DNA of 64,000 bases. Origin: Antedon mediterranea. Lineage: Eukaryota; Animalia; Echinodermata. Below are positions 11,021 to 41,870 of the stretch, piece after piece. Where the stretch lies: positions 15,562,001-15,626,000 of the forward strand of contig NC_092672.1 of NCBI RefSeq assembly GCF_964355755.1. The letters are read 5' to 3'. Each line of letters opens with the position of its first letter. The first letter of the stretch is position 1. The notes under the pieces were generated by a model. It was given only the letters and a program-made list of their open reading frames with translations, ran no database searches and was not told the DNA's origin. The position numbers were made by a program, and so were the translations under genes.

Positions 11021-11841
11021 TATGGAACGCCGTTTACGCAACATTTCGATGATATGAATTTTATGACGCGATATGTGAATGAAATGCATCGATATGAATT
11101 GAATGGCGTGATATATGAATGAAATGTTTTGAATTGAATGCTTTGAATTGAATGTTTTGAATGAAATGTTTTGAATGAAATGTTTTGAATTGAATGTTTT
11201 GAATAAAATGTTTTGAATGAAATGTTTTGAATGAAATGTTTTGAATGAAATGTTTTGAATGAAATGTTTTGAATGAAATGTTTGAATTGAATTGAAAAGT
11301 CAAACTATTGGCGGCGTATGTCATTCCCGCTCGCGATTTTTTTTCAACCTCTTAATAGGCCTAAGCATGGGTACCCTCATCTCCTTTCAACGCTGTCATC
11401 AATATGAATCCTTTACAGAGACTCCCTAACAGACCTGAAACATTGGAATACATATTTCCGAACCCAGGTCTGTTAGGATTCTCTGTAAAGGCAGCGTGGA
11501 AGAAAGGAGATGAGGGTACCCATGCTTAGGCCTATTAAGAGGTTGAAAAAAAATCGCGAGCGGGAATGACATACGCCGCCAATAGTTTGACTTTTCAATT
11601 CAATTCAAACATTTCATTCAAAACATTTCATTCAAAACATTTCATTTAAAACATTTCATTCAAAACATTTCATTCAAAACATTTCATTCAAAACATTTCA
11701 TTCAAAATATTCAATTCAAAGCATTCAATTCAAAACATTTCATTCATATATCGCACCATTTAATTCATATCGATGCATTTCATTCACATATCGCGTCATA
11801 AAATTCATATCATCGAAATGTTGCGTAAACGGCGTTCCATA
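11021..11841. mobile_element. Foldback MITE, IS3EU-like (TATGG...CCATA, 6-bp TSD)
   Basis: TSD CTTTTA at 11015-11020 and 11842-11847; ~400-bp inverted arms containing 14-bp tandem repeats (TGAAATGTTTTGAA). Confidence 0.9.
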
Positions 11842-18430: not shown

Positions 18431-19057
18431 TTACCTCTTAAAGTCATCGTTAAATTTTTTAATCCCAGCAGGTAGAAACGAATTTGAGTATCGACCCGTC
18501 CGCGCCAACACCGACCTCAGTCTACCACTTCTACCAATGTGGCAGCGAAGAAGATCCGAATGAAGGGGGTGGCTTTCCTCCTCCATGACCGCCTGTAAAC
18601 CATTTTTCAATCGTTCTCCGTAGTGACAATCGTAGACTGAGTCCGCTGTCAGCGCCGACGAGCCAATCACTCTTAATGCCCTTTCTAACACTTTACATAT
18701 GCGGCCCTTATCTCCTTTGTTTATGTTCCCACCCCAGCCTAATAGGCAATAATCCCAGATTGAAAAAATAACAGATGAATAAAACATTGTAAGTATCTCT
18801 TCCCTTACCCTAAAAACGTTCATTTTCCTCAAACAGTACAGTCTAGTATTTAATTTTTTAATTAGTTGATCTACATGCTCTCCCCATGATAAATTATTGT
18901 CATACGTTACCCCAAGATACTTATATGTTTTAACGATTTCTACCTCATGTCCTTTAATCTGGACAGGCTCAATTTCCCTTCTTTTTTTACGGCGGAAATC
19001 TCCATTCGCATTTCTTTGGTTTTTGCTACATTAAGTTCAAGGAAATTTTCATCACAG
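18431..19057 (-). pseudogene. C-terminal part of the Rex1-like ORF
   Basis: Continues ..KYC|DENFLELNVAKTKEM..YKYLG..; frameshift near 19003; stop at 18431. Confidence 0.8.
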
Positions 19058-19416
19058 TGTAACCCAGGCTACAAAAGTAGGCCAGTCTAAGAAGATGAAG
19101 GGTAACCCAGGCTACAAAAGTAGGCCAGTCTAAGAAGATGAAGGGTAACCCAGGCCACAAAAGTGTGCCAGTCTAAGAAGATGAAGGGTAACCCAGGCCA
19201 CAAAAGTGTGCCAGTCCAAGGAAATTGCAACATTTACACATTCCTACTTCCTTACAAACAAAGAAAGTACTGACCAACATACTTTAAGTATGAGCTAATT
19301 ATTTTAAGGATAAACTATTAGCTGATCAAACTCCAAATAAGGAAATAGGGCCACCATCATCTACCATTAGATAATGGTCCAGGAATGTATTTCGGAACAA
19401 CAGGGTGGGGCCAAGA

Positions 19417-19450
19417 TATATAAAAAAGACTGCAGAGTTGGGAAAAGTCA
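19417..19450 (+). promoter_or_regulatory. LTR TATA box and initiator
   Basis: TATATAAAA at 19417 with TCA at 19448-19450, about 30 nt downstream. Confidence 0.7.
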
Positions 19451-19555
19451 CAACTCAACTCTAAATCTATTGAGAGCAGTCAGGTCCTCCCTGATACTTT
19501 TTGTACGTTCTGAAAGAAGTTGTATTTACACTTATTCCTTGCTCAACAAATTCAG

Positions 19556-20026
19556 GTAAGATAACCAACATAAACTTATTATTTTGTAGCGTAAGTAACA
19601 TAGCTAAATTCTTTAGTTGTACTTGTTAACTACATATAGGATACTACTTTTATGTTTATCATTGCCTGTTGTTAAATCCAGCAATGAATTTCTTATCTTA
19701 GATACAACTTGATATATTGTAAATATGTACTATATGTTTGACCACCTTATATCGTATTGATTGTATGTTTATATGTAAGTTAGAGTGTAGTAATAAGACC
19801 CTGTCATTATATACTCACTAGGCTATGATTTATTAGCTAATCCTAAATTATCCTTGAATGAAGCCTGTATAGAGAATTCTGTAGTTATAGGAATTAAATA
19901 CAAAAAGGCTACCGTAAATCACAACTCAACTCTAAATCTATTGAGAGCAGTCAGGTCCTCCCTGATACTTTTTGTACGTTCTGAAAGAAGTTGTATTTAC
20001 ACTTATTCCTTGCTCAACAAATTCAG
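19556..20026 (+). other. Predicted 471-nt intron inside the LTR
   Basis: CAG|GTAAGA donor at 19556; ..TTATTCCTTGCTCAACAAATTCAG|G acceptor at 20026; contains ATTAAA at 19893. Confidence 0.6.
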
Positions 20027-20418
20027 GTTGAGGGAAGATTGCCCAAGTTGGATTCTGTGTGTAAAGTCCACAGCCAGACGAGGGAATCGGTGGAGTGTAT
20101 AAGCATCAAACTTCGAACGGGTTTACCACACCAAAAAGGGGACAAGCTCGACCACTGCCAGTTGTCAACAAACTTAAGTTTGACTTGTTATCTAAATCTT
20201 TAAGCATACTTAATTGTGTGCCATTTCAATTATAAGTCGCATATTGTATAATTTGTATTATGATTTAGAATAATAACACATCTACTATAAGCCAACTATT
20301 TTGTACTCTTTTATTTATTATCTATGTGTGTCTAGTGCCGCTGCCCCAATCAACTCGAACCCCGCTTACCCTAAGTCGATAATCTTTTGTGTTGTGTGTA
20401 GAGCGGTTACATAAAAAC

Positions 20419-20436
20419 TGGCGCCCAATGTGGGGC
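20419..20436 (+). promoter_or_regulatory. Primer-binding site, tRNA-Lys type
   Basis: TGGCGCCCAATGTGGGGC, one difference from the tRNA-Lys1,2 PBS TGGCGCCCAACGTGGGGC. Confidence 0.85.
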
Positions 20437-20641: not shown

Positions 20642-21961
20642 ATGGATATATATGACTGGTGTATTAAACATAAGGTCGATCCTAGTCATGCTATTGCATT
20701 AAGGGGTGTATTGAAGGCCAATTATAGTCACGATAGAATACCTAATGCATTCAAAGAAATAGATCGATCCCAGGTTGTTGAAGTTATAGATGAAACAGAT
20801 ATCACTTTTCAATTACTACTTTCGTTTTCCAAACCTGTAGTAGATCTAAATATCCCCACAACCATTGACCACACAGATAACGAAACCTGGACTATTATAA
20901 AATGGGATGGGAAGACCCCAGAAAAGGACACCCATATCCTACCCACAGATTTCCAGGGACAACTACAAAAATTTCTCTTAGAACATGGGAAAACCCTGAA
21001 CGATCTTAGGCTAGATTCCATCCCCTCCGACACCAAAGAAGTAGTAGTAAAACACCTAATAGGCAACAACGTGCCCCGTACGGCCGGTGTTCGTCGGTTA
21101 CGACAGTTTTCGGGACGGGTGCCAATCCCTTCAAATGAGGTAGACTTTGAGACTTGGTCTCAACTAGTCCAACAACTTTTAAGGGATGATAGCTTATCAC
21201 AGGCTGAACAAAAGAGCATCTTAAGTCAAAGTCTCTTTCCACCAGCACTTAATATCCTAAATAAAGTGACAGATAAATCAACTGCTAGGGAATGCCATGA
21301 TGTACTTAATGAGGTCTATGGTTTGGCAGTGGATGCAGATGACCTCTATACTCTATTTAGGGAGACATATCAGTCGGAAGGGGAACTGCCCTCTAAATTT
21401 TTAATGCGCCTAGATGAAAATCTAACTAGGGCAACAAAGGCAGGGGCAGTTGGGGTAGCAAAGGCTGACCATATGAGACTAGCTCAATTTGTCCGTGGGC
21501 TAGTATATGACGAGATGCTATCATCTACATTAAACCTGAAACAACGCAAATCAAATCCCCCTACTTATTTAACACTGATTAAAGAAGTTAGAAGTGAGGA
21601 AATTAATAGTAGGGCTAGGGCAGAAAAGCGAACACCTAAGGCAGTTAGTGCCAAGGCTGCGTTATGTAGCTATGAAGCCCTTAGCCATGAGGTAGAAGTT
21701 CTTAGAACTGAGCTACATCACCTCAAATCAACACCAAGCCCACCAGAGTCCACCCCTAACCCAAAAACGCGTTCTTCACCTGCGCCAAACACTAGGCCTA
21801 AAATATGTTATAATTGTGGCGAGGATGGGCACCACATGAGGGGTTGTCCCAACCCAACTAATGCCACATTAGTACAGCAGAAATTGGTCAAACGGTTTAA
21901 TCAGGCGGGAAACGGCAGAGGGCATCCGGGAAGAAGGGACAACGGTCTGCCCCATCAGTAA
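20642..21961 (+). CDS. gag: Gag (PNMA/Ma-like capsid plus CCHC zinc knuckle)
   Basis: First ATG at 20642; RLRQFSGRVPIPSNEVDFETW; CYNCGEDGHHMRGC. Confidence 0.9.
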   Translation: MDIYDWCIKHKVDPSHAIALRGVLKANYSHDRIPNAFKEIDRSQVVEVIDETDITFQLLLSFSKPVVDLNIPTTIDHTDNETWTIIKWDGKTPEKDTHILPTDFQGQLQKFLLEHGKTLNDLRLDSIPSDTKEVVVKHLIGNNVPRTAGVRRLRQFSGRVPIPSNEVDFETWSQLVQQLLRDDSLSQAEQKSILSQSLFPPALNILNKVTDKSTARECHDVLNEVYGLAVDADDLYTLFRETYQSEGELPSKFLMRLDENLTRATKAGAVGVAKADHMRLAQFVRGLVYDEMLSSTLNLKQRKSNPPTYLTLIKEVRSEEINSRARAEKRTPKAVSAKAALCSYEALSHEVEVLRTELHHLKSTPSPPESTPNPKTRSSPAPNTRPKICYNCGEDGHHMRGCPNPTNATLVQQKLVKRFNQAGNGRGHPGRRDNGLPHQ

Positions 21962-21970
21962 AAAGGTCCC
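21907..21970 (+). promoter_or_regulatory. -1 ribosomal frameshift signal (G GGA AAC plus predicted pseudoknot)
   Basis: Heptamer is in the correct gag phase; the -1 frame is open into the protease; stems GGGCA/TGCCC and GGGAC/GTCCC. Confidence 0.8.
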
Positions 21971-24811
21971 AACAAAAGAGAAAGGGAAACACTGGAACAA
22001 AAACCTCCAATAATTTACTCCATAGTGCAATATCACAAACTAATAATCTTATAGGCGACCCTAGTGTCGTAACAATAATTGTTGACGGTCATATATGTAA
22101 TGCAATGTTAGATACAGGCTCGCAAGTTACATGTATCAGTGAAGACTTTTATAAAGATAAATTAAGGGATAAGCCTATATACCCATTAACCGATTTAATA
22201 GTAACTGGTGCTGGCGGTCAGAACGTACCTTATCTAGGTTATATAGAGGTCAATTTAACGTTTCCTAAAGTCCAGACGGGCTATACAAAACAATTCCCAA
22301 CATTAGCTTTAGTGTGCCCCAAATTAGGGAAGGGACTGTCTATGTTAATGGGCACCAACACCAGTATAGTTCGGGATCTGGCCACTGGCTGGACAAATAC
22401 TAAGAAAAAGGGAAGGAAAGTAGGCCCCATACACTCTGCTTGGGCTGAAGTGTATAAAGAGGATAAGGCTAAGAAAGATAAACTAGGCCCCGTTAAAATA
22501 TGTTCTCCTATGACAATACCTAGAGGAAAAATAGTAGAGGTAGAATGTGTTATAAAGAACACAGTACACCCTAACTTAGATGTGTTAATTGAAGCATCCC
22601 CGGATATCCCACTTCCTGGAGGGCTTTTAATCACACCCTTAATAGTCAAGTTAGAACATATGGGCCCAGTTAAACTTAGAGTTCCTTTGTCAAATTCTAG
22701 TAAAGAAATTAGGCTAAATAGAAACTTTAAGATTGCCACTGCTTTCATCCCCCAGTCTATAACGCATCACAGTCCGGAAGTTCACTGTAACTCAAGTACG
22801 GCCTCAAACAATTTTAATTTTGATAGCTCGCCAATTTCACATATAGATAAGGCAAAATTTATTAATTTACTTAATAATCATCCGAATGTTTTTTCAAAGA
22901 ATGATTTAGATATAGGGAGAACTTCGGCTGTAAAACATAAAATACACCTAACTAATGACACCCCATTCCGTCAACCTTGTAGGAGGATACCCCCATCTGA
23001 TTTCAATGATGCTAGGGACCACATTCAAGATTTATTAAGGAAGAATATCATTAGAGAGTCCGAAAGCCAGTATAGTTCTCCTATAGTATTAGTCAGGAAA
23101 AAGAAGACTAACGAAATTCGATTATGTATAGATTACAGACTTCTAAATTCTAGGACGGTTAGGGACCAATACAACGTCCCCAACATTGAAGATGCCCTTA
23201 CAACCTTACGTGGTGCCAAATGGTTCTCATGTCTTGACCTCAAATCAGGCTATTACCAAATTGAAATGGCTGAGGAGGATAAAGCAAAAACTGCATTTTG
23301 GTGCCCATTGGGATTCTATGAATTTAACCGAATGCCCCAAGGGATCACTAATGCCCCCGCCACCTTCCAGCGATTAATGGAGAAGTGCATGGGGGAGTTA
23401 ACATTTTCCGACGTTCTAGTTTATTTAGATGACTTACTAGTTTTTTCAACCACACTAGACGAACACCTAGCTAAGTTAGACAAAGTATTATCTAGGCTTG
23501 AAGAGTATGGCTTGAAACTAAATCCAGACAAGTGCAATTTTGCCCAAACTTCCATTAAGTGCTTGGGCCATGTCATTTCAGAGGATGGGGTAAGCACTGA
23601 CCCAGATAAGGTAGAGGCTGTCAAATCTTGGCCCCGCCCCTCAAATGTAAAAGAATTGAAATCATTTCTAGGTTTTGCTGGTTATTATCGACGATTTATA
23701 CAGCATTATAGCCATATTGCCAAACCATTAAACCAACTTATGACTAAGTATGACCCAATACGTAAACGAGGTAAAACGTTCAAAAAACCTAAATCCAATA
23801 CTCCCTCAGAAAGGCGCCCTAGTCCTAATACCCCATTTGGTACTAACTGGTCCGAATCATGTCAGGTGGCATTTGATGTACTAATAGATAAATTGTCTTC
23901 AGCCCCTATATTAGGATTCGCAGACTACAATTCACCATTTATTCTACATACCGACGCTAGCACAAGCGGGTTAGGTGCAGCCCTATATCAAGAGATAAAT
24001 GGGATAAAGAGGGTAATTGCCTATGCTAGTCGTGGGTTATCCAAAAGTGAAGCCAATTATCCTGCTCATAAATTAGAGTTTCTTGCCCTAAAATGGGCGG
24101 TGACTGAGAAATTTACTGACTATCTTTATGGTCAACGATTTGTAATTTACACCGATAATAACCCCTTAACGTACGTGTTGACGACAGCTAAGCTTGACGC
24201 TACAGGTCAAAGGTGGCTTGCCGCCCTGGTCAATTACAACTTTGATATTAAATACAAAGCAGGTAGAAACAATCAAGATGCAGACGGTCTTAGTCGTCGC
24301 CCACATGACCCCCCTTCCAATGACTTTGAATACGAACAATATCAAGAGAAAGCTGACGAAGTGTTAGGTAGAGTAAAATTTTCATCCTGTTCGTTCACAG
24401 CAGTCTGTAATGCTAAAATAGTTAAAAAGTCTACTATACCTAATGATACAACACCCTTAGTTGAGTCAGTTAGTGATTCTCCTGATGCAATCCCCGCCAT
24501 CTATGATAACCCTATTAGGCCTATAGATGGGCAGTCAACCTTGCCTAATGTTACTGCAGCGGAGTGGGTAGAGCATCAACAACAAGACCCTAATATAAAA
24601 CCTATTTTTAAATTTGTATATAACAAACGGAAACCTACACAAGATGAACTCACAAAATTACCCGAGGAAACTAGGCTACTCCTGAGACAGTTTGATAAAT
24701 TATTGGTAAAAGATAATATTCTATACCGCCAATTTGTAAATAATATCGGAGCTATGCAATTGCAATTAGTACTTTCAACCGCTTATAGAGATAAAGCATT
24801 TACTGGCTTAC
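21907..24811 (+). CDS. pol: Gypsy Pol: protease, RT, RNase H and start of integrase
   Basis: LDTGSQ, LCIDYR, YLDD, HTDAS, YTDNNPL, DADGLSR; continues in frame into the inserted LINE. Confidence 0.93.
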
Positions 24812-27738
24812 CTAAAAGTCGTAAGTTTTTCTCACGTCCGATCGCTTATTACAGTAACCATACGGCATGTTTTAGTATTGATATCTTGTCTGCTGGTGAT
24901 ATTGAAACAAATCCAGGTCCAATGAATTCCAGAATGAAAGATTTAAACGAAATCCACCGACCCAACAACATAAAAATCGCTATGTTCAACGCCCGAAGTA
25001 TTGCTAATAAAATCCAGGATCTTCAAGTACGGATAGAAAATAATGTTGATATAGTGTTGTTGACTGAAACATGGTTGGATCCAACGATTAAGAGTGCAGA
25101 GATTTTCCCGTTAGATTACTGTGTTCATAGAAACGACAGAAACAGACACGGTGGTGGTGTTCTGATAGCATGCAAACATTCTATTGATGTATTATCTGTG
25201 GACATTGACACTAATATTGAGGTTCAACTGGCTGAAATCCATGTATCTGGAGGAAGTATTCTGCTTGGCTGTGTTTATAGACCCCCGAGTTCATCAAGAG
25301 AATGGTTAACCAATTTTCAAGAACTCTCAGACAATATACTCTCCATCATGCACAAATATACTGCTGTGATCATCGCTGGTGATTTCAATTATGACTTTGG
25401 TTCGAACTCGAACTGTAATATTGAGTTTGAAAATATAATGTCATCTCTTAATCTTGTTCAACTTGTAAATTTTCCTACCAGATATGCAAATAATGGATCA
25501 CATTCTATGTTAGACCTTGTGTTCTGTAATAATAATGACATTATTCATAATGTCACAGGTGAACCTGGAATTAGTACAAGTGATCATATAGGTATCTTCT
25601 TTGACTTAGCTGGACGGTTGGTCTGTCCTAAACAAGTTCCTAGATATTTTTATCAATATAAAAAGGTTAATCATGATGATTTTTTCCAAACTCTTAATTC
25701 AGTCCCGTGGGATATCTGCTTTACACAGCTTAACTTAGATTCCACTTGGGCTTGTTTTAAAGACCTTTTTCTAGCCGCAATTGATGATTGCATACCCAAA
25801 GCTAAAAGCAAACCTCGCAGAAAATCAATCTGGATAACAACTGAAATTATTAAAATGTCTCGTAAAAAGAGACGCCTTTATCGAGATGCAAAGAAACATC
25901 CGAATAACATGTATAAGTGGGAAAAATACAGAAAATTTAGTAACGCATTGCGTGAAACTACGAGAAAGTCTCATTATGATTACCTCCATAATCTTAGTTT
26001 AGGCTGTAAATCTAATCCTAAACGATTTTGGTCATATGTTAAGAAAAAACGAAAATGTGCAACAGAAAGAAAGTATACTTTAAACGGCAATATCATAGAT
26101 TCAGATTTAAATGCTACTAAAGCATTTTCGAAATATTTTCATTCTAATTTTACTGAAGATAATGATGATTTCAATGTAACAAACGAAACATCTTATTGTA
26201 ATCACAGTGAAATTGTCTTACCTTTAACTAGTATTGTCATCAATAGGGATCAAATTTTCCGTGCCCTGTTATCTTTAGATACTAATAAATCCCCTGGGCC
26301 CGACGGGATTACCCCTATGATGTTGAGTATGGCTGCACCTGTTATATCCCCAATTTTGCTTAAAATTTTTCAAATGTCCCTTGACCAAGGCATTGTGGTG
26401 AAGGAATGGAAATTGGCCAATGTTGTACCAATTTTTAAATCTGGTAGTAGAAATGATATAAGTAATTATAGACCAATATCACTTTGTTCAGTTGTTGGCA
26501 AAGTTCTAGAACGTATTGTGGCTGATCATTTTTTATTTCATCTTCAATGTAATGCGTTTGTTAGTCCTGTACAGCACGGGTTCTATCCTGGAAGATCTTG
26601 TATTACACAAGCTTCATCCATATACCACGAATGGTCCAAAATATTAGATGGTACGAACCCACCAGTCGTCGATGCTATATTCCTTGATTGGGAAAAAGCA
26701 TTTGACCGTGTGAGTCACCCTAAACTATTACGTAAGCTCCACAATTTTGGTCTATGTGGTCCAATTTTGAAATGGATGGGCTCATTTCTTACTGATCGTT
26801 GCCAACAGATTGTCCTTAATGGACTGATATCTGACCGTACACAAGTTGTTTCAGGTGTACCTCAAGGGTCGGTACTTGGCCCATTACTTTTCAACTCGTT
26901 CGTTTTTGACCTCCCTATGTCGATCACCTCTCAAATTAGACAATATGCCGACGATACGGTGGTGTTCAGGCCAATTAGATGTGAATATGATGCGATATTA
27001 CTTCAAAAAGATCTAGATAACATCGATGAATGGTGTCAAAATAACATGATGAGACTTAATGCTAAAAAATGCAAAGTTCTCCATATTACTCGCAAACGTA
27101 ATCCCATTCATGCTCGTTATCACATTCACACTAATGACCTTCAAGCAGTTACCTCCTACAAATATCTTGGTATTCACTTTGAAAGCAATCTCTCTTGGTC
27201 AACGCATGTGTCCGCAATTACCACAAAATCTCTCCAAATTGTCGGATTCATAAAGCGTTTTGTGATATTTAACGACCCTGTAATTTTGATGAGGCTTTTT
27301 AACGGTTTATGTAGGCCCATACTTGAGTATGCTGCCCCTGTTTGGGTGCCTCATCAAAAACAACATATTACTAGCATAAATAAACCTCTTCGAAGGATCA
27401 CAAAATTGTGTGCTAAGGGCGATTACGAGCAACGGCTCGAACATTTAAATTTGCCATCTATGGACCAGAGAGTGTGTTTTCTCAGTATACTTTTTATTAT
27501 GAAATGTATGTATGGTCGAATTGATCTTAATATTCACGATTTTGTTGATTTTAATCCAAGGTATTCCGAATCAGTTATTTTTAAACACAAATATGCCAGA
27601 ACCAATTCTTTTAAATATTCATTGTACACTAATTTTCCCCGTGTATGGCAAGAGATTCCTAATTATATTAGAGAACATTCTTTATTTAGTTTTAACACAT
27701 TTGTGACAGCTCTCCGGTCTTATGTCAGGCAACTTTAA
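24812..27738 (+). CDS. LINE ORF2: 2A-like peptide, AP endonuclease and RT
   Basis: GDIETNPGP; LTETWL, GDFN, SDH; GVPQGSVLGPLLF, YADD, YKYLG; no stop codon. Confidence 0.9.
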
Positions 27739-28026
27739 ACTTTTTATTTTTTTTATCTTTAAACAATCATTTTTATCTGTACATAATATTTATATATATA
27801 TATTTTTTAGATTCAATTTTAATGATTGTTCAACTTGACGCCTCGCAATTTTAAATTTTTATATCTTTGTCTTTTTATGGTTTACTTATTTGTTCAAGTG
27901 CAGTATATGGAGAGCCATCTCGATAGTGCTTTGCACTCATGGCAATCCTCAGGGTGCTGCACCGCTGTCTTGTTGTCATGTTTTTTTGTGCCTGAAAATT
28001 GAATAAAATAAAATAAAAAAATAAAA
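24812..28026 (+). mobile_element. 5'-truncated CR1/L2-group LINE with intact ORF2, inserted in Gypsy pol
   Basis: Removing it restores ..KAFTGL-HDDIGH..; TAC duplicated at 24809-24811 and 28027-28029; (AAATA)n tail. Confidence 0.9.
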
Positions 28027-28028
28027 TA

Positions 28029-29674
28029 CATGATGACATTGGTCACCCTGGGATGGAACGGACCTTGGATCTTGCCCGATCCAGATTTTATTGGCCTCGT
28101 ATGTCCTCCCAAATTGAAGATAAATGTAGGTGTTGTGAACGATGTGTCCGAAGAAAGGCCCGTGCTACCAAAGCAGCCCCCCTAGTTAGTGTCAGAACCA
28201 CCATGCCTATGGAATTAATGTGTATTGACTTTCTGTCTATAGAACCTGATTCTAAGGATACTAGAAATGTATTAGTTGTGACTGACCATTTCACTAGATA
28301 TGCTATTGCTATCCCAACTAAGGACCAAAAAGCCCCCACAGTAGCAAAAGCTCTGTGGAATAATGTCTTTCAACATTATGGCTTTCCAAAACAATTACAT
28401 TCAGATCAAGGCAGAGATTTCGAATCAAAAGTTATCCAAGATTTATGTAAATATTTAGGAGTAAGAAAATCTCGTACAACCCCATACCATCCCCAGGGTA
28501 ATGGTCAGGTAGAACGGTTTAACCAAACCCTGCTTAAAATGCTAGGCACTCTAGAAAACCAAAAGAAAGAACATTGGCGAGACCATGTTGCACCCTTAGT
28601 GCATGCATACAATTGTACTAAGAATGATGCTACGGGAATGTCCCCATATTATTTAATGTTTGGTAGAGAAGCCCGCCTCCCAATTGACATCCAACTACTG
28701 TAGGTATTGACCCAAATCAAAATGGTTCACTTTCTCCAAGGGGATATGCCGACAAATTACGACATCGCCTAGAAACAGCACACAAATTAGCCCAGGAAAT
28801 GGCAACCAAGAAAGCTAATGCCAATAAAGCCCGATATGATAGTAAAGTGCGTGAATGCACTATTTGCAAGGGTGATAGGGTACTAGTAAAAAATGTGCGC
28901 TTAAGGGGTAAACATAAACTTGCTGATAGGTGGGAAGAAACTATTTATGTGGTTTTGGAACAAATAGGGGACAACCCTGTGTACAAGATAGAACCTGAAG
29001 ATAGTGATGGCCCTACTAGAACATTGCATAGAAATATGCTACTCCCATGTAGGTTTGCTACAGCAAAGGAAACTCCCCCTAAAAGTGGTACTAAAGAAAA
29101 ACAAAGACAGAGAAAGCCTGTCACTCGACAAGGGCACAAAACGCCTAAGTCAACTGTCCCACAGCCAGAACTATCTGGACATGAAACAAGTGATAGTGAT
29201 TTAGATTATTACATTCCAAATTCAGTTCGCACACTTCAACAACCAACAGATCCATCTATACCTCCTAATCTGGGTAATGACCAAAACGTGGCTCAAACTA
29301 TTATAGAAACCCCAATTGTTAACGAAATAGAACCTCAGATCAATGAGGAAGATGTAATAGTTAACCATGATATTAATGATATCGAAGATGCTGTTATTCA
29401 TAATTTAGACAACAATGATAATGTTAATATTGATAATGCTAATAATGAGCCTGATATTCAACCTGATGTCCACGAACCACAGGCTAATACAGATGATACC
29501 TTACGTCCTAAACGACTAAGAACACAGCCAGAAAGGTTAGGTTATTTTGCTCCTGGCCAACAAGTTACATCAACTTCTAATATGGTGGTCCAAGTCATTG
29601 GGATGCAAAACCAAATGTTTGCTGATATGATGCAATCTCAATTATCACTTTTAAGAGGCTCTAAGCCGAATTAA
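28029..29674 (+). pseudogene. Gypsy integrase (HHCC, DDE core, C-terminal tail), cut off from pol and frameshifted
   Basis: HDDIGH..CERC, CIDF, HSDQG, QVERFN; a 5-bp insertion at 28698-28702 breaks the frame. Confidence 0.9.
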
Positions 29675-29900
29675 TTTTATAATGTTATTTTTACTATATG
29701 TTTATATATACACGCCAATTTTGATTCCTTTTCAATGTAATATTTTTTTTCACTGTCTATTTTTATGTGTTAAGACAGGTGAATTACGATCAAAAAACTA
29801 AATGGTGACGTAGTTAAGCACTATTTTTAATGTAAATGTTGGTTACCATTGAGTTTGTTGAGCGTCGTCCGGGGACGGACGAGTATTTTGGCAGGGTGAG

Positions 29901-31215
29901 TGTAACCCAGGCTACAAAAGTAGGCCAGTCTAAGAAGATGAAGGGTAACCCAGGCCACAAAAGTGTGCCAGTCTAAGAAGATGAAGGGTAACCCAGGCCA
30001 CAAAAGTGTGCCAGTCCAAGGAAATTGCAACACTTACACATTCCTACTTCCTTACAAACAAAGAAAGTACTGACCAACATACTTTAAGTATGAGCTAATT
30101 ATTTTAAGGATAAACTATTAGCTGATCAAACTCCAAATAAGGAAATAGGGCCACCATCATCTACCATTAGATAATGGTCCAGGAATGTATTTCGGAACAA
30201 CAGGGTGGGGCCAAGATATATAAAAAAGACTGCAGAGTTGGGAAAAGTCACAACTCAACTCTAAATCTATTGAGAGCAGTCAGGTCCTCCCTGATACTTT
30301 TTGTACGTTCTGAAAGAAGTTGTATTTACACTTATTCCTTGCTCAACAAATTCAGGTAAGATAACCAACATAAACTTATTATTTTGTAGCGTAAGTAACA
30401 TAGCTAAATCCTTTAGTTGTACTTGTTAACTACATATAGGATACTACTTTTATGTTTATCATTGCCTGTTGTTAAATCCAGCAATGAATTTCTTATCTTA
30501 GATACAACTTGATATATTGTAAATATACTATATGTTTGACCACCTTATATCGTATTGATTGTATGTTTATATGTAAGTTAGAGTGTAGTAATAAGACCCT
30601 GTCATTATATACTCACTAGGCTATGATTTATTAGCTAATCCTAAATTATCCTTGAATGAAGCCTGTATAGAGAATTCTGTAGTTATAGGAATTAAATACA
30701 AAAAGGCTACCGTAAATCACAACTCAACTCTAAATCTATTGAGAGCAGTCAGGTCCTCCCTGATACTTTTTGTACGTTCTGAAAGAAGTTGTATTTACAC
30801 TTATTCCTTGCTCAACAAATTCAGGTTGAGGGAAGATTGCCCAAGTTGGATTCTGTGTGTAAAGTCCACAGCCAGACGAGGGAATCGGTGGAGTGTATAA
30901 GCATCAAACTTCGAACGGGTTTACCACACCAAAAAGGGGACAAGCTCGACCACTGCCAGTTGTCAACAAACTTAAGTTTGACTTGTTATCTAAATCTTTA
31001 AGCATACTTAATTGTGTGCCATTTCAATTATAAGTCGCATATTGTATAATTTGTATTATGATTTAGAATAATAACACATCTACTATAAGCCAACTATTTT
31101 GTACTCTTTTATTTATTATCTATGTGTGTCTAGTGCCGCTGCCCCAATCAACTCGAACCCCGCTCACCTCAACCCTAAGTCGATAATCTTTTGTGTTGTG
31201 TGTAGAGCGGTTACA
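29901..31215 (+). repeat. 3' LTR (1315 bp), preceded by PPT GGCAGGGTGAG
   Basis: Matches the 5' LTR; duplicated 108-bp block at 30248-30355 and 30717-30824. Confidence 0.95.
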
Positions 31216-33155
31216 ACAGTATTTCGTAAACCTAACTATTTCAGATTTGAAATTTGTATCGTCATCCTCTTTTATTAAACCTATCATAGCAGAATCATCT
31301 GCAAATTTAATTACTGGACAGTCCGGGAACCTAGGTTGGAAATCCGATGTATACAATGTGAACAAAAACGGTGCAAGTACAGTACCTTGTGGTGCTCCCG
31401 TATTTGTCCGAATAATGTCGTCCGATCTGACATTTTGATTTAGCCTAACAAACTGGAGACGTCCAACGAGGAAGTTAAAAACGAACGAAATTAGTAAATT
31501 GGGGATATTCATGCCGAACAACTTATTAATTAAAATGTGTGGTTGGATGGTATTAAAAGCTGAACTAAAGTCGAAGTACATAATCCTAACAGACGGGGAT
31601 GTTCTCCAATTGTCAAGATGGGCATACATTTTTTCATTTTTGTATATTAATGCGTCTTCAGTGTTCCTGTTTCTCCGATAAGCGAACTGATGTGGGTCCA
31701 AAAAATCTGCAACTAATGGTTTCAGGCTTTTTAGAACAATCTTTTCACAGACTTTTATTGGGACGGATGTTAGCGCAACAGGTCTAAGATCGTTAAAACA
31801 CTGTATATTTTGTCGTTTAGGGATTGGGATGATGCATGACGTTTTCCAGGATTCCGGCAAGGTTTGTGTTTCAAAAATCAAGTTAAAAATATATACAAAA
31901 ATATCTGCCAATTGGGTTGCGCATAATTTAAGAACTTTGGGTAGAATTTGGTCTGGTCCAGCTGATTTGGATGCTTTCAGACCTTTAAAGTGGCTGGTAA
32001 CTTCATCCGCATTTGTCTTAAGGTCAAAACCACTTTCATCTGGTAAGGCCAACCTACTTTTGATTAAGATCTGTTCATCAGAAAAATTATAGCGATCAAA
32101 CCTATTAAAAAAAGTATTTAATTCATTAGCATATTGATTAGTCAAATTTGACACAATTCCACTTCCTTGTGGCGATTTTGCATATCCGCTCATTTGCCTC
32201 ATTGCCCTCCAAACCTTACTCATATCATTACCTACAAAATTTTCTTCTATTTCACGTTTGTACTTTAGTTTACTTTTACGTATTACTCGTTTAAGTTCCT
32301 TTTGGATTTTATTTAGTTCAATTACATCACCTCGATCGAAGGCCTGTCTCTTTTTCTTAATAACATCTGTCACCTCCCTATTTATCCATGGTTTACGGTT
32401 TCCGTAGATTTTAACTTTCCTTTTTGGTATTACATTTTCAGTACAAAAGTTAATATATGCACTGACCGCTTCCGTTACCTCGTCTGACCCGTTTGAATTT
32501 TCCGTAAAAACACTCCAGTCCGTAGTTTCAAATTCGCATTTCAGCTGTTCTATTGCATCTTGAGTCCACTTCTTAACAGTAATTACCCTGGGTTTCTGCC
32601 GTTGTACTAATGGACGATACTTGGGTTGTAGTATAATTAAATTATGGTCAGATTTACCAAGTTTCGGCAATTTTCTTGCTAAATATGCGTGTTTTACGTT
32701 TGAATAACATACGTCAAGGGTAACAGATTCCCGCGTGCTGCACTTCACATGTTGGTAATAGTAAACGCTACTCTTTTTTAGGGTACAATGATTAAAGTCT
32801 CCATTTATTACAATATATGCGTCAGGGGAAGCCGTTTCAATTTCCGCTATAACTACGGTTAGTTCTCTTTGTGCTTCCTTGGCCAGATTTTTGTTTGGTA
32901 TGTATACAACCACTAACACAACATGTGAAAATTCCCTCGGTATGTAGAACGGACGTATTGAGAGTACCATTATTTCAACGTTAGGCGAGCAGCTGTTTTT
33001 CTTTAGATGCACATTATTTGGGTGACAATACCTTTCGCTTATATATGCCATAACACCGCCTCCTCTATTTTTTCCGGATTTAACCGTTCTATCACCTCTG
33101 AATAATGTAAACCCATCAATCCTAAAATGTTCGTCACTTTTCTCTTCACTTAACC
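31216..33155 (-). pseudogene. N-terminal/central part of the Rex1-like ORF (APE-RT)
   Basis: TWL, GGGV, GDFN, SDH and RT motifs up to FADD; the 686-aa ORF runs artefactually into the LTR. Confidence 0.88.
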
Positions 33156-35520
33156 AAGTACTTTTATGAAGAAGAATCACATAAAAAGTAACAAATAAAT
33201 CCTTAAATTGATGATTTTACAGACATGTTTCTCGCATACCGTTCGCGAATTTAGCATACTCGAAGTTCAATATTTTCGTTTCTATGGAGCGCCAGAAGAG
33301 CAACAACAACAGATGGTTAAAAACTCAGTGGAATGCGTCTTCTTTTAATGCATTTATTATTGAAATGTAACATTTTACTGCTAATAATTTGCTGTTTTCA
33401 AATAGCAACCAACCCTAGGCCTAAGAGTAAGACTAAGACTAAGAAGAATATTATTTAGATCAGGTATACCTCTACAGTACATGTAATATGATGATGAATT
33501 TGTCGATTTTCATTCCTAAAAGTTCCTGCAAAAACCATGTACAGTATGAACAGTAATATTTTTGTTGCATTGACATTGACAAAATATGATAAAATTGAAC
33601 GTAATTTTCACCAATAAATGCATTAAATATACACAATTTACTGAGTGTTTAGCCCTCTATTATGATTGCTCTTTTGGCACTCCATATAAACAACAACATT
33701 GAACATGGAGTATGCGAAATTCACGAACCGATGTGTGAGAAACATGTCTGTAAATTCATCAATTTAAAGGATTTATTTTTTACTTTTTGTGTGATCTCCT
33801 TCGTAAAAGTATTTTTGAGGCCTAATTCTAGGGTGTGGTACTCATGATAAAGTTACTTAACCAATTAACCAGTGCGAAACGGAACTAGCGCCAAATGAAT
33901 TGCCTATTTTCATCTAAAAAATAAACGCATTTGGTCCCCGGGGCACAAACGATTCGTACAAAGGACACCATACAACTGCGTAGGCCTACCTATTGTTTAG
34001 ATTGCTGGCAGTCAGCAAGCATAAATAAAAGTGTATATACGTCAAAAATGGAACGCCGTGGTTACCTACAGATCATCATCATAGAGGATATTTTAATAAT
34101 AATATAGTACACTGTGTACTGTAGTATACATTATAGCAACCGGTTTTTTTTCTAGGCCACCCACCCAACTGTATCACTATTTATATTTATATAAAAAAAT
34201 AATTAATTAATAATTGATGTAAATAAATATTGAGCTATAATAAGCATTAAATTTTGCGCTTTTTTCGGGGTTTCCCCTAGATGTACGTTCGCATTGAACC
34301 TAAACGCAATGCAATCAAAACTAAATACTGGGTGAATGAAATCGGCAATCGTCCAGTAATTAGTCACATGTTTATTGGAGGGAAAAAATATGATCGTTTT
34401 GCTCATTGGTGTAGCATGCTGCATATGACAGTGTCTTTTCGTGCAAATTAGAGGTGCCATTTATCATGAATTTTATGTGCGAGTGTACCATTTCTGGCCA
34501 TCTGGGGCGTCATTAACAAAGTTTGTTTCGCCACAGGTCCTGTCGACGGCCCTGGACAAGCACCTTTTTCGGCCATGTACGTGCAAACTCTGACTTGCGC
34601 GAAACTCTCTGTTGTGATGCCTATGGGGAAAATGTCACTCTTTAATAGTTTTCATATTTAAAATATCAATTTTTAAAACATTTATTTAACGTGAGAGTGC
34701 CATTTCCGACCATCTAGAGGTGTTATATTTTCAAAATAGCCAAAACTTAGCCCCAACCATGGTGGAGCTGAGTTTGTGTGGACTCTCTACAGCTGAGAGC
34801 CCCCCCCCCCCCTCCCCTTTCACAAAATCCTGGATCCGCCCCTGACAATATATCACTAAAACAGTAAAACATTTGCGATTTAATACTTTGGTAAAACTGT
34901 CAATGTCATAGTCGATTGAAATAGTAAAGTACATGTAACGATACACCACTACGACGTTTATATTTGTTATAGTTATTAATTAATACAAACGTTGAGAAGC
35001 AACTATCACTAATAAAGTTTATTTATATATTATGTGTTTATATATCTAACAGACCCACAGTAAGAAATTTTCGATTGAAATGGCGAACAAAAATGGTTAA
35101 TACTTATTTACAGTACTAGAGGGTGAGCTCACTTCACTCTCTCCCCCTTTAGGATGTGTAGACGATGGTTCTCGGAATGATAATGAATGAAAAGGTTTTA
35201 GAAGGACGTACTCTCCTTGTACGTTTTCTGTCGGTAGGCCTATACCATTATTGAAAATGCTTGACATTCGTAAAACTAAACCTATTCTGTTTCACAGTGT
35301 CTTAGATGATTAATAACATTTTAAAGTATAATGTTTTTTGTTTGGTAGGTGTAGTATTGTGATAAACCATAATTATAGTAAACCCTAGAGGGCAGTAGAT
35401 ATAGAGGACGGGATACATACAATGGACATGGAGACAGAATAAGAATAAAGACAACTAATGTTGTTTAGTGTTTATTAATGGTTCTTGTATTAACGTCAGC
35501 ATACAGAACACAACATTACA

Positions 35521-38500
35521 TGTATTAGAATGATGGCTGACACAGGTGCCAGTTGCAACCTCGCAGATAAGTGTACCTATGATAGATATTTCAGTTCTAA
35601 GATATTAGACAAAGGTAACGCCGACATTGTTGCATACGGAGCCAAAATAAAGATCCTTGGTTGTTTTAAAGATAATTTAGCATATCATGATAAGGCAGTC
35701 AATGCAACAGTCAATGCAACAGTTTATGTGACAGCAGGTCAGTCTGGAAACCTGTTGAATTTGGATACGTCATCCAATCTAGGCTTAGTGAAAATTAATC
35801 AGGATGTTAATAAGTTAAGCACATGTAACAATAGTGATGTGGCCTTAAAGTACCCTAATGTATTTACAGGCAAAATAGGAAAAATGAAAAATGTAAAGGT
35901 TGATTTACATATTGATGAATCTGTAGTGCCCGTGGCCCAACCACATAGACGTATACCTTTCCACCTACGTAAAGCGTAGATAAAGAACTAAAGAGGCTTG
36001 AAAGCGAGGACATAATCGAAAGAGTGATAGATGGTCCCACCCAATGGGTAAGCCCTATAGTTCCGGTGCCTAAACCAAAGAACCCAAAAGAAGTGCGTAT
36101 TTGCGTTGATATGCGCAGAGCAAACGAAGCGATAAAAAGGGAAAGACACCCCTCCCCGACCATAGAAGACATAATCGCAAAAGTAAATGGTGCTGTAATA
36201 TTTAGCAAAATTGATCTGAGATCCGTTGTCGGATAAATCCAAGTCCATTACTACGTTTTCAACACATGATGGTCTTTGGCGATATAAGCGTCTAATATTC
36301 GGTGTATGCAGCGCGAGTGAGAAATGTCAAAAAGTAATAAGTAACGTCATTTCAGGTATAGAAGGCGTTTTAAACATATCGGATGACATTTTCGTGTTCA
36401 GTCGTAATGCAGCAGATCACGATGAAACTCTAGATAAAGTGATCAAACGATTAAATGATAATGGGCTTACAGCCAACCCACAAAAATGTGAGTTTAAGAA
36501 AGAAGAAATGGAAGTTGATCCTAAAAAAGTTGAGGTAATTACCAAGATGAAAGCCCCCTCAAATGTTAGTGAAGTCCAAAGTTTTTTAGAATGACAAACT
36601 ATTGCGGCCGATTCATTAAAGATTACTCCTCAAAGACTGAACCTCTTCATCGTTTAATGCGTAAAGACGTAGTCTTCCAGTGGGGAAGTCAACAGATCGA
36701 TGCATTCCAAAATATTAAAACAGCTCTTCGAGAAGCACCAACAATGGCCTACTATGATATAAATTTACATACCGAGTTAATAGTAGATGCATCTCCTGTT
36801 GGGTTAGGAGGAATATTGGTGCAATATGATGCAAACAAAAATTCGTGTGTTGTCGCGTACGGAGCTCGATCACTAACACACACTGAACCACGTTATAAAA
36901 GCCAAATTGAACGTGAAACGTTGGCGGTAATATGGGCATGCGAACACTTTCATATTTATATTTTTGGAGCACCCATAACTCTTATAACGGATCATAAGCC
37001 ACTAGTAAAGCTTCTAGGGAATCCGAACGCGAAGTTACCGTTGAGATTAAAGCGATGGCGTTTGAGATTGTTGCCGTACGACCCAAAGGTCATGTACAGG
37101 CCGGGAATAGATAATCTGTCTGACTATTTGTCAAGGCCTCCGGTAGACTCGGGAAGTAGCTCTCGGAAAGAAAAAGTTGCCGAACAGTACGTTAATTTAA
37201 TGGAACAAGCGAGCATTCCAAAAGCTATGAATCTAGTAGAAATTGCAGAAGCTACAAATGATGATCCAACTTTAAGTGCTTTAAAGTCACTAATCGCGAC
37301 AGGCCAGTGGAAATTAATCAAAACAAAGTTTGGAAATTCAAAAAATGTAAACATCAACGATTTAATGATATTTAGTAGAGTTCCAAACGAGCTCACCATT
37401 ACAAATAATGGACTAATTTTCAGAAACACTCAAGTTGTTATGCCGCAAAAAAGCTAAGAAATAGAGCCTTGTGTTTGGCGCATGAAGGCCATCAAGGCAA
37501 GGTAAAAACAATAGCACTTCTAAAAGAGAAGAACATTGAATCAAGAGTCTCGGAACTCATAGATAAGTGTGTGGCATGTACTGCTACGACAGACACAAAA
37601 CCAAGAGAACAACTGAAAATGTCTGAGCTACCAAATGGTAAAAACATTCATCTAGCCGCAGATTTTTATGGTCCACTACCATCGGGCGAGCACCTGTTGG
37701 TGATAATAGATGAGTATTCGCGATTTCCGGAAGTAGAGATAATCAAATCATTATCGGCTAAAACTGTAATTCCAGTTATTGACAAAATATTTTCGTCTCG
37801 AGGAATTCCTGTTAAATTTAAAACAGATAATGGTTCCCCGTGGAACAGTGAAGAGTTTAGAAATTTCGCGGATTATATGGGTTTTGAACACCAAAAAGTA
37901 ATACCATACTGGCCAGAAGGCAATGGTTTAGTGGAAAGATTCATGAAAACCTTAGGTAAAGTATGTAAATGCGCAAATACCGAAGGGAAAAGTTGGAAGC
38001 AAGAGCTTTACATATTCCTACGAAATTATAGGGCAACCCCCCATACGTCAACCGGGGTCCCTCCAGCAACTATTGCAAATGGTGAAGCATTAAGGGTTAA
38101 GCTACCACAAATGTAAACAAGTATGTCTAAAACTAAGACCCACAAAGACCTTCTAAAGCAAAAATGAAAGAAAACGCTGAAAAGCGAAGGAATATATCCA
38201 AAACTCTAATGTTAGAATAGGAGACTATGTTCTGATGAAGAATATTAAGAAAGGAAAGTTAATTCCTCTGTTTCAAATTGAACCCTTCAAAGTAGTAGAC
38301 ATAAAGGGTGATATGATTGTAGCTAAAAGAGGAGAAGAGATAAAGGCAAGAATTTTTTTTTATTTTTTTTTATTTTATTCATTTCGGCAATAAACATAAA
38401 ATAATAATTACAAAAAAAAACATAAAAATATATATATATATATGAAAAACAAGACACGAGGCCGAGGAAAGACAAAAGCATTAAACAAACGCTGTCACCG

Positions 38501-38736
38501 GTAAGGTGTGTCTCTCCAACACATAAATAACAAATAACAAGAATATATACAAATATAGTAGACATATCATTTCATTTAAAAATTTAAAAAGTTTCTCTCC
38601 GACATTTAAATATAAATAAATCTCACTTTAAAAAGATAGTAAATTCTAAACATGGTCACAAGAAACAATTAACACCTATAACTGTCAATAATAGACCAAG
38701 AAGAGTGGTGAAAGCACCCAATAGATTTGATCTGTA
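35521..38736 (+). pseudogene. pol: Pol (PR-RT-RH-IN) with several frameshifts and stops
   Basis: ADTGAS, WVSPIV, RICVDMR, ISDD, VDAS, TDHKPL, AHEGHQG, KTDNG, LVERFM. Confidence 0.88.
38353..38613 (-). mobile_element. Short A-tailed retroposon 3' fragment in the integrase tail
   Basis: T-rich tail on the + strand interrupts IKAR|NKSHFKK. Confidence 0.6.
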
Positions 38737-39589
38737 ATCAGTAAATGAACAGATATTGTTATGTGTTATAAAATATGTTTTGAGTTTTATAGTGTTAACA
38801 AGAGTTTTGAGTTAATTTAGTTAAACAAAGAAATACTGTATGTATGGAGAACAATTATTCACAATATGAAATACTGTATAATAATTCTAATATAACTAAA
38901 GGAGAAAGAGATGTAGTACAGTATTGTGATAAACCATAATTATAGTAAACCCTAGACTAGAGGGCAGTAGATATATGGACATTGAGACAGAATGAGAATA
39001 AAGACACAGAGTAAAACTAATGTTGTTTAGTGTTTATTAATGGTTCTTGAAAAGTAGTGAAAAAGAATAAATGCTTGTTAAATTGTAGATAACAGTGCGA
39101 TGAATTATACAAATAGTATAATTGTCTTATAAATATAATACAATATTGTGTGTATAAATGTGGATGGGTGTTTATTAGATAGATGGGTTGGGGGTGGGAG
39201 GGGGATTATTATTCAAAGTGATTTTTTATTGGGGAGGTTTTGGGCGTTTATTCAAATAAATACAATCCTAATAATTAATACATTAATTAATACATTATTT
39301 AATTTAAACATCTTTTGAACCTAACTTCCACGACAGAGTGGGCCGTTTCGGCCCAAGAAGGAAGACGTTCTAAACGGCTTGCAACATGGGCAGACGTATC
39401 CCGGTCCTGACGGGACACAGATAGCCCACAGTTATTCTTGCCGACTTACTGAATAAAACTCGGCTATTAGGATTTCACTCGATTTTAAACAAAAATTTTA
39501 TAATACTATTCCTCACAATATACTCCGATGTTTATGCCGTATATTTAATTTGATCTATTAATTGGCAGTATTAATTTTTATTTTTTAAC

Positions 39590-41870
39590 TACTGTACCTT
39601 CACATGCACGGTCCGATCTGAAAGTAAACAAAAAACTAAAATGGCTATAGCCACTAACAGCCGACTTAGTTGAAACCAGGAAGTTGCAAGGTGAACCTGT
39701 GAACGGTTGAACTCATAGTGAACCCGGAAATTACTTGGACTGTCTGCCAAATTTGGTCTGACAGACCGATTTTGGCCGCCAAATTCAGTCCGGCAAACCG
39801 ATTTTGGTCGTCAAAATTGGTCCGGCCTGGATAAAACCGGTCCCGGTGGCAGGACTACTTTAGGCCGCTAAATATGACCAGGCCTTGTTTAAATATGGTG
39901 CGCCAAATTGGTCGCAAATAAGAAAGAGTTTATTATATAGTCAAAATATGATCGCAATTTTACTGATAATGTTTATATTGTATATTTATTATAGTGTAGT
40001 AAAAAATCAGAAAAAACAATTTTCCTTTCTTATCTATATATAAATTTACGTAAGGGCAAAATTCGGTAAATCGCGCCTTACTTCTAGAATTTTTACTCGA
40101 TGGTATGTAAAGTTGGTTCGTACTTTCGGTACTGATTTTAACCACCTGATGTAACCCTGTTTACTAATTAAATTAAGTTAGATAATTAGTTATTGACGAT
40201 TAAAACGAATTTAGGTTCAACGATTTGCCCCAAATAGGGGTGTTTTCCGATCGTGGTATACACTGTCTAATGGATGTCCATCTTGAAAAATACCTGCCAC
40301 AAAAATGCGAGGAGGCTTCGCATTTTCCTATCTCCTCCTACGATAATTGTTTTTAATAGCTGAAAACCGGATGAACAGCTAGAGTACGCCATCATAATGT
40401 TGAAGACAGTTTTTTTAAAGAAAATCGGCTTAGATAGATTTAATATACGATTATACAAATGTATTGATTTGCGATGAATGGAACATCCCAATCTCTCAGT
40501 CTGCCAGAGTATGGTTTAACACAAGTACTGTAGGTAAATTTATGAGCCCTTGGTTTAACACATACCGTAGGTAAATATATGGGCCCTTTGAGAATAAACT
40601 TGCAATACCTTGACAATACTGTAAATACCTATTAACTATTTTAACTTACTGTGAATGTTCGTACTGTTAGATGTAATATAAAAATATATACAAATAAACT
40701 TTATTACTGAGATTGTGGATAGGCTCTACTGTTAGATATATAAACACATTATTATATACAAATAAACGTTATACTGACAGTTCTTTCTCAACGTTTGTAT
40801 TAATTAATAATTACCAAATATAAACGTCGTAGTGGTGTATCGTGACATGTACTTTAATATTTCAATCGATTATGACAGTGACAGTTTTAACTAAACTAAA
40901 TAAAGAATGTTCTCTAATATAATTAGGAATCTCTTGCCATACACGGGGAAAATTAGTGTACAATGAATATTTAAAAGAAATAAATAAATAAATAAAATAA
41001 ACAAAGTATTAAATCGCAAATGTTTTACTGTATTTAGAGGTATATTGTTTATAGGCCTATAAAACATGAAAAAAATATTTCGTTACTGAGTGGATAAAGA
41101 ATATATTTAAAAATTGTTCCTCTTTGTACCTATCCGCTTTCCCATCCCTCAACCCTAATGTTACATACAAAACACAAATTGGGTTTCTTAAAATTTGGAC
41201 TCATTTTGTGATAAGTTTCTCCTTCGAAAGTAATTCCCAGGGTGCTAATTTTAGTTGACTACATAAATCATCGTGTCTATTTATTCGTTTCTGTAAACGA
41301 CAATGTATTATAGTCCTGCGGTACGTACATTTGAAATCGCCAGTTTTGTTACGCTGAAATTACTGTGTATTCGAGAACCATCTGTGGGCACGACCTAGAT
41401 GGTACGCGAGCGAAGCGAGCGTACCATCTAGTTTTCATAATCGACACTAAATATATCTTTTATCTTGTTATAAATGTTGTTCATTTTGCTCATAATATCA
41501 CTGTGTAAGAATAGCAGGTGTAAAAGTAATTTCCGCGTTCACGATTAGTTCACCAATTACATCGTCACCTTGCAACTTCCTGGTTTCAACTAAGTTGGCT
41601 GTTAGTGGCTATAGCCATTTTAGTTTTTTGTTTACTTTCGAATCAGACCTCGCATGTGAAGGTACATAGGCCAATATATGAACGTGGGACAGTCTGAAAT
41701 TTTGACGAAACAAATCGTTGGACCTAAATTCGTTTTAATTGTCAATAACTAATTATCTAACTCAGTTTAATTAGTAAACAGGGTTATATCAGGTGTATAA
41801 AATCAGTACCGAAAGTAAGAACCAATGCGTGATTTACCAAATTTTGCCCTTATGTAAATTTATATATAGA
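39590..41870. repeat. Inverted repeat arms (39590-39690 plus 40030-40235 versus 41565-41870)
   Basis: AAATGGCTATAGCCACTAACAGCC..GTTGCAAGGTGA and TCGGTACTGATTT..TTATTGACG recur reverse-complemented. Confidence 0.65.

Follow-up and report, generated by a model that had tools for sequence, protein, structure and literature searches.

Intron-like layout with a putative first-exon copy in the LTRs of a Ty3/Gypsy retrotransposon from Antedon mediterranea

The window analysed here, a stretch of 64,000 nucleotides from Antedon mediterranea (assembly GCF_964355755.1, contig NC_092672.1, forward-strand positions 15,562,001 to 15,626,000; all coordinates below are those of the window), contains a Ty3/Gypsy retrotransposon in each of whose LTRs a stretch of 108 nt occurs twice. 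From sequence comparisons we think it probable that one of the two copies is the element's first exon and that the other was made from it by reverse transcription, the latter forming the tail of a predicted intron and being rewritten at minus-strand transfer. With high probability the layout marks an origin of the second copy from spliced RNA, and its renewal in most replication cycles is likely.

The repeat, the predicted intron and the host element

In the 5' LTR an exact match of 110 nt relates positions 19448-19557 to 19919-20028, and in the 3' LTR 30248-30357 is matched by 30717-30826. Each match comprises 108 nt through an AG and the two bases GT, which come after CAG in either copy, and the exact 108-bp duplication within both LTRs that the first-pass annotation had reported is in this form borne out. 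Beyond it the sequences part, copy 1 reading CAG/GTAAGA and copy 2 CAG/GTTGAG. Upstream, the putative TATA box TATATAAAAA (19417..19426 on the plus strand, core TATAAAA at 19419-19425; 30217-30226 in the 3' LTR) begins at 19417, 31 nt before copy 1, and copy 1 (19448..19555, plus strand; 30248-30355) opens with an initiator-like TCA, in good agreement with the suggestion that it starts at an initiator some 30 nt past the TATA box; transcription would begin here and copy 1 would be exon 1. The expected donor stands directly after it as CAG/GTAAGA, which matches 6/7 consensus positions, and a plus-strand GT-AG intron of 471 nt is predicted to follow (19556..20026; 30356-30824 in the 3' LTR), made up of the donor, a spacer of 363 nt that is unique and AT-rich, and copy 2 (19919..20026, plus strand; 30717-30824). 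Copy 2 would thus be the 3' end of the intron and the source of its pyrimidine stretch and AG, and the remainder of the LTR (20027..20411, plus strand), in which a second candidate poly(A) site is found, would be exon 2, or U5.

Two details require adjustment. A pyrimidine-rich TTCAG acceptor had been proposed; the AG is present, but the sequence beside it is only weakly pyrimidine-rich and scores -0.7, the lowest of 7 scorable repeat-type acceptors, those of 6 relatives lying between 0.4 and 3.5 on a score trained on those very sites. Similarly, the copies had been taken to start at 19448 and 19919, and in the commoner reading across the family they start one base later, at 19449 and 19920. 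The exon 1-exon 2 junction, 19555^20027, is identical letter for letter to the unspliced copy-2/exon-2 sequence, so that plain junction reads cannot prove splicing.

The element itself is a Ty3/Gypsy (Metaviridae) LTR retrotransposon, with direct LTRs that have TG...CA termini and a 4-bp target duplication, ACAG, at 19054..19057 (plus strand) and 31216-31219. Its 5' LTR (19058..20411, plus strand, 1354 nt) and 3' LTR (29901..31215, plus strand, 1315 nt) are 99% identical, differing by two substitutions, two small indels and one unit of the 43-nt tandem repeats that occupy the beginning of U3 (19058..19225, plus strand), of which the 5' LTR has one more. Seven nucleotides past the LTR lies a primer-binding-site-like 18-mer (20419..20436, plus strand) that is presumably of the tRNA-Lys type; a multi-base gap between LTR end and primer site (20412-20418, 7 nt, in the window) recurs in the relatives L002, L014 and L041. 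A short purine-rich tract (29890..29900, plus strand) precedes the 3' LTR. On the plus strand follow gag (20642..21961), which is of the PNMA type (PF14893, E 4e-26) with a CCHC knuckle under the Pfam cut-off and a GGGAAAC slippery-type heptamer at 21907; a pol segment (21901..24810) with a protease-like region, recognised by inspection, reverse transcriptase and RNase H; and integrase (28029..29674), with a frame change near 28690-28700. The pol order after gag is accordingly reverse transcriptase (RT), RNase H, integrase, interrupted just ahead of integrase by an inserted LINE (24811..28028, plus strand, ends approximate) that carries an AP endonuclease, a reverse transcriptase and an A-rich tail and is in frame with the Gypsy pol. 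Given the LINE insertion and the frame change in integrase, this copy of the element is probably inactive.

LINE insertion and Gypsy pol form one frame of 1945 codons, and the insertion contains DIETNPGP at 24898, presumably a 2A-like motif, which could free the LINE protein from a Gypsy-driven polyprotein. An exact inverted match of 87 nt (27606-27692 and 40893-40979) places a fragment of the LINE's 3' part elsewhere in the window and suggests that the inserted LINE belongs to a young family. The Gypsy element in turn sits in the RT frame of an older minus-strand LINE, whose two sides (18950-19057 and 31216-33216) read as adjoining pieces of one RT domain. Its closest RT/RNase H proteins are from a sea cucumber (71%) and then from fishes (about 57-66%). 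No match to a GIY-YIG endonuclease was obtained in the 4 element frames scanned and integrase domains are present, so that the element is not Penelope-like. Through its PNMA-type gag it may be linked to the Barthez lineage, to which PNMA genes have been traced (Kokosar and Kordis 2013, Table 1; PMC3670739).

The window also includes a second, degraded Gypsy-like element with partial pol (about 35350-39050), whose short LTRs (about 35353-35487 and 38920-39049) are 79% alike and show no internal repeat at the sensitivity of our comparison; a 53-nt tandem array at 52680-55100 with about 35 or more near-identical units; and, at 11021-11841, a foldback element with long inverted arms of a 14-nt unit.

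The layout among related LTRs

Relatives were taken from the best 80 of 526 related metagenome-contig loci, which are 49-68% identical to the window element in RT/RNase H; a search of viral contigs returned no related loci. Among these 80 we delimited by hand 21 complete LTRs on short-read contigs (50-68% RT/RNase H identity), L054 being dropped as nearly identical to L053 and the remaining loci being truncated or without the region. An internal repeat was defined as an exact match of 18 nt or more with 60 nt or more of spacer between its copies. By this rule 8 of the 22 complete LTRs, the window and 7/21 relatives, contain a repeat and 14 do not, and the search of related Gypsy LTRs that had been recommended at the outset has thus turned up the same layout. 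In all 8 the repeat ends 0-2 nt past an AG and GTA directly follows copy 1; no internal repeat of another kind was seen in the 22 LTRs at the same thresholds. The order TATA, copy 1, GTAAG, spacer, copy 2, AG of both window LTRs is the same in the 7 relatives, with a clear TATA box at -30 in the window only. Repeat lengths range from 23 to 108 nt, the predicted introns from 153 to 531 nt and the spacers from 118 to 505 nt. Several copies start at or within 5 nt of a TCA or GCA, which we take to be initiator-like. Because AGGT[AG] is rare, occurring at 37 of 22,119 LTR positions, the ending of the repeats at AG/GT is not a coincidence; the chance per repeat is ~0.005, with three registers allowed, and ~6e-10 for four independent lineages outside the window.

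Individual loci add some variety. L014 has the same repeat layout divided between both contig ends, and the L040 contig ends where its copy ends; the repeat of L071 is made of two exact segments; and at L047 the acceptor is AAG followed by GTGAAG, which fails the acceptor score. By eye, more than one donor/acceptor-like pair can be picked out in the LTRs of L015, L066, L072 and L052, the last three of which are 1.6-2.5 kb long.

Within elements the two copies are exact in 7/8 cases (96% in L071). Between families they do not align: none of 28 pairs beats all of 100 shuffles, and even in the sisters L030 and L035 little more than the bases at either end of the copies is shared. Copy 1 and copy 2 therefore co-vary as the first-pass annotation had proposed to check, being alike within elements and different between families. 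On a tree of 23 rows the layout is scattered, requiring 5 changes, at least 3 of them by starred branches, and a single clade for it is rejected with p-AU 0.00016 (quick tree, simple model). The core of the earlier idea, an LTR intron whose copy 2 derives from spliced exon 1 at strand transfer, gains from this co-variation and from the junction at which the repeats end, and loses three of its details.

The earlier claim that the copy is what allows the element to keep an intron stands only in part, since the copy may be dispensable. A strict intron rule is satisfied by 3 of the 14 copy-less LTRs, compared with 2/14 on the reverse strand and 0.47 expected. A softer acceptor score, devised post hoc and trained on the eight repeat-bearing acceptors, was applied to 11 of the 14, the 3 omitted having no poly(A) signal in their last 400 nt. 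As a set these 11 show, at a distance of 5-45 nt upstream of their last poly(A) signal, sites that resemble acceptors, the summed score being reached by 0 of 500 local shuffles; taken singly, 2/11 give p<0.05, and L006 and L053 are poor fits. Introns may thus be common among the LTRs of this Gypsy clade. Since its copy has to act as acceptor, exon 1 would need to finish with a pyrimidine stretch and AG, and LTRs with the exon copy may represent a derived condition that only such an exon end permits. Such an end was found at 1 of 15 hand-picked donors of copy-less LTRs. A pyrimidine-rich CAG immediately precedes the donor in L003, the window's nearest neighbour in the tree, and in L008. To create the copy, a single transfer of full-length strong-stop DNA that missed its target and landed in the intron might have sufficed; both RNA ends would be collinear from then on.

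Renewal of the copy, the ends of the RNA and rival explanations

Reverse transcription of spliced RNA normally erases introns. In the route that we propose transcription would start at copy 1 and, as the cap assists use of a nearby splice donor, the cap-proximal donor would be used, giving an RNA whose 5' end is exon 1 joined to exon 2. The intron of the 3' LTR would stay in the RNA in one of two ways: the RNA might be cut inside copy 2 before the acceptor, which fits L044, L063 and L014, or the donor, now far from the cap, might go unused, which fits L048 and L071. Strong-stop DNA would then pair with copy 2, by which the unspliced 3' end is made collinear with the spliced 5' end, and this pairing would require that R run tens of bases or more into copy 2. 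After transfer, synthesis would proceed via the spacer, copy 1 and U3. A transfer at full length would overwrite copy 2 with exon 1, and an early transfer would leave the 5' part of copy 2 unchanged. Direct repeats are unstable under retroviral reverse transcriptase, with 41% deletion in one cycle measured for one repeat (PMC3187697), and an exact repeat in an active family consequently needs renewal or selection.

Where the RNA ends is central to this scheme. The only AATAAA/ATTAAA of the 5' LTR is the ATTAAA at 19893..19898 (plus strand; 30691-30696 in the 3' LTR), a candidate poly(A) signal that lies 20 nt before copy 2, just as had been noted. A second, weaker candidate consists of AATAATAAC (20269..20277, plus strand) followed by a stretch of 70% T at 20300-20319. 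From the sequence either the ATTAAA at 19893 or the weaker signal at 20269-20319 could set the 3' end of the window's RNA. None of the 7 complete repeat-bearing relatives has A[AT]TAAA in its spacer; the motif is inside the copy in L044 and L063 (also in L014), just past the acceptor in L048 and L071, and lacking in the three others. The acceptor of L063 is 14 nt from the LTR end, so that cleavage before it is likely and R there would cover much of the copy. A switch of the foamy-virus type, in which U3 would bury the donor, was considered and set aside: folding predictions gave no such pattern in 7/8 LTRs, the donor being clearly more buried with U3 in one, and for the window donor the predicted mean unpaired value is 0.01 with or without U3.

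Traces of copying were sought in assembled contigs of the runs X2, X5, X6 and X7, none of which is on record as RNA. The X2 and X5 contigs are interrupted where a 109-nt unit begins and ends, each of its four flanks being on a contig of its own, a shape that would be expected if the repeat exists in these samples; the overlaps of 28-31 letters are mostly too short for the bridging rule. At the three bases ahead of the family-wide start of copy 2 (19917..19919, plus strand) the window differs from the X2, X5 and X6 contigs and equals the bases that precede copy 1 in those runs, and these bases were likely overwritten from copy 1; the window also differs from the same contigs at 19447, the base ahead of copy 1. 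This is most simply explained if, in the lineage of the window, a transcript began three bases early and was copied in register over the flank of copy 2, with 19447 changing afterwards; gene conversion could be another source of the overwrite. A T>A change at 19970 occurs in 3 X7 contigs, one in intron context and one, judged by its loose end, probably in U3 context.

Evidence for less than complete renewal comes from a subfamily in organism B (depth 305.6 of 831.6 in X6 and 67.8 of 175.9 in X7), which has private changes in the 5' half of copy 2, at about +1, +20, +22 and +38, that are in no copy-1 contig among those listed, while the 3' half of its copy merges with the main type. Overwriting is therefore probably incomplete in some cycles, and these changes argue for an RNA 3' end well inside copy 2. 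Organism B also contains a more distant family with unbroken contigs through copy 1 and through copy 2, which implies that the copies share no 31-mer and have apparently diverged; it may be an old decayed locus and meanwhile counts against renewal.

A low-depth X5 record of 237 nt on 19956-20088 has the copy's end without a mismatch, followed by 46 letters of other sequence and then by a diverged copy with exon 2; a splice from one LTR into a diverged LTR may lie behind it. Contig depth cannot rank gene parts, and the idea that the excess depth of copy and exon 2 marks X5 as an RNA run (copy 297, exon 2 162.5, spacer 59.5) was for this reason set aside; the depths in the DNA-like X2 (12848, 5672, 4758 versus 5027) are likewise no measure of the rarity of intronless LTRs.

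Several other explanations must be weighed against renewal at strand transfer. The intron may be real and the packaged RNA usually unspliced at both ends, copy 2 being rewritten only occasionally from spliced mRNA or LTR-only RNA, which would make the copy a recurring by-product instead of the normal route. We judge this unlikely, if well worth keeping in mind: the 14/22 LTRs without a copy, 11 of them acceptor-like as a set before the last poly(A) signal (post hoc), the private copy-2 changes in organism B, the 96% identity in L071 and the dominance of spliced LTR-contained non-coding RNAs in maize (PMC13192763) all speak for it, but 7/8 repeats are exact and, without routine renewal, repeat deletion should erode copies present at both RNA ends (PMC3187697). 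Distinctly less probable is the form given in the first-pass annotation, in which the ATTAAA at 19893 directs the RNA 3' end to the first bases of copy 2, R is a few bases long and the copy is remade in full each cycle. That hexamer is the sole canonical one in the LTR and lies 20 nt ahead of copy 2, no variant is among those listed at this site for X5, X6 and X7, and cutting before the acceptor also fits L063; against this, a spacer signal is present in 0/7 relatives, the organism B changes extend to about +38 of copy 2, the window has the weaker signal and T-rich tract at 20269-20319 as well, and a 108-nt match to copy 1 should outcompete an R of a few bases and delete the intron. As a general account a very short R does not hold.

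The exactness of the copies might instead reflect a plain duplication event, produced by template switching or by unequal exchange, with DNA-level gene conversion keeping the copies alike and the splice-like motifs being incidental or yielding an intron only afterwards. Gene conversion can also produce the 3-base in-register overwrite, and the distant organism B family seems to have diverged copies; the AG/GT end of the repeat in 8/8 LTRs, the unique spacer and the repeated appearance on the tree are left unexplained, however, and this account, already strongly disfavoured, is in our view very improbable. An assembly artefact is scarcely credible, even though the relatives are short-read contigs of multicopy elements, given that both LTRs of the window element, which has a target duplication of its own, contain the repeat, that contigs of independent runs break at the same 109-nt unit and that the terminal overlaps of L044 and L063 (127 nt) exceed their repeats (64 and 74 nt), suggesting that assembly words were long enough. 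Renewal of the copy from spliced RNA at minus-strand transfer is the reading that we prefer.

Known systems and what the layout would mean

The window element has in common with Barthez-type Ty3/Gypsy elements its LTRs, a 4-bp target duplication, a putative primer site and the order gag(PNMA)-PR-RT-RH-IN. R forms an uninterrupted segment of the textbook U3-R-U5 LTR, whereas here splicing would create it at the 5' end and the exon copy would supply it at the 3' end. In the Rogers model introns are reportedly gained by tandem duplication across AGGT, one duplicated segment giving both donor and acceptor; such an intron is all duplicated sequence and its copies drift, in contrast to the window layout, where a unique spacer is present and the copies stay alike. 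An intron derived wholly from tandem duplication is ruled out in the window, where 363/471 nt are unique.

Some Barthez LTRs are longer than 1000 bp, and neither 'intron' nor 'splic' occurs in the accessible text of that source (PMC11117352); the accessible parts of PMC9341512 and PMC6431247 likewise have nothing on LTR introns. In maize, introns inside the LTRs of retrotransposons have been established with long reads, the authors claiming the first such evidence yet citing an earlier report of the splicing pattern; the spliced LTR transcripts, with a mean intron of 1303 bp, are read as long non-coding RNA, and the accessible text describes neither an exon copy at the intron end, as proposed for the window, nor a route by which the intron is kept (PMC13192763). 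Penelope-like elements have a 5'-UTR intron in the pseudo-LTR and so, as is proposed for the window element, retain an intron that lies within a terminal repeat and close to the start site, by a retention mechanism stated to be unknown; unlike it they have a GIY-YIG endonuclease, pseudo-LTRs that derive from partial tandem insertions and no integrase, and no exon copy is described in the portion of the source at hand (PMC8557442). In foamy virus a splice donor lies upstream of the LTR poly(A) signal and RNA structure blocks U1 at the 3' LTR; donor and poly(A) signal are thus found in both LTRs and the two ends are treated differently, as would be the case here, but neither an acceptor nor an exon copy figures in the accessible account (PMC3694450). 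Introns inside LTRs are therefore known already, from maize (PMC13192763), and what appears to be new is the exon-copy layout. We found no account of it in the literature searched; the same search missed the maize LTR-intron preprint, so that an existing description may have been overlooked.

For hosts, a lack of introns is one sign of a retroelement: in human cells HUSH represses intronless transgenes, and an inserted intron counters the repression (PMC8770142). More tentatively, with a confidence that falls a little short of even, we suggest that the layout represents a widespread mode of LTR replication, in which splicing generates R at the 5' end and an exon copy that renews itself provides it at the 3' end, that it arose repeatedly from intron-bearing LTRs in a large animal Gypsy clade and that hosts which silence intronless DNA are thereby confronted with an RNA spliced like that of a gene and with an insertion that bears an intron. 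The arrangement provides a signature for which repeat libraries can be searched, namely an LTR repeat ending at AG/GT together with an acceptor-like exon end before the donor. If the proposal is correct, an intron-rebuilding LTR would mean that the U3-R-U5 model has to be revised for some Gypsy elements. It would also supply a testable explanation of how a retroelement can undergo splicing and yet transmit its intron, and host genes would have in such LTRs a natural supply of promoter, exon and intron as a finished module.
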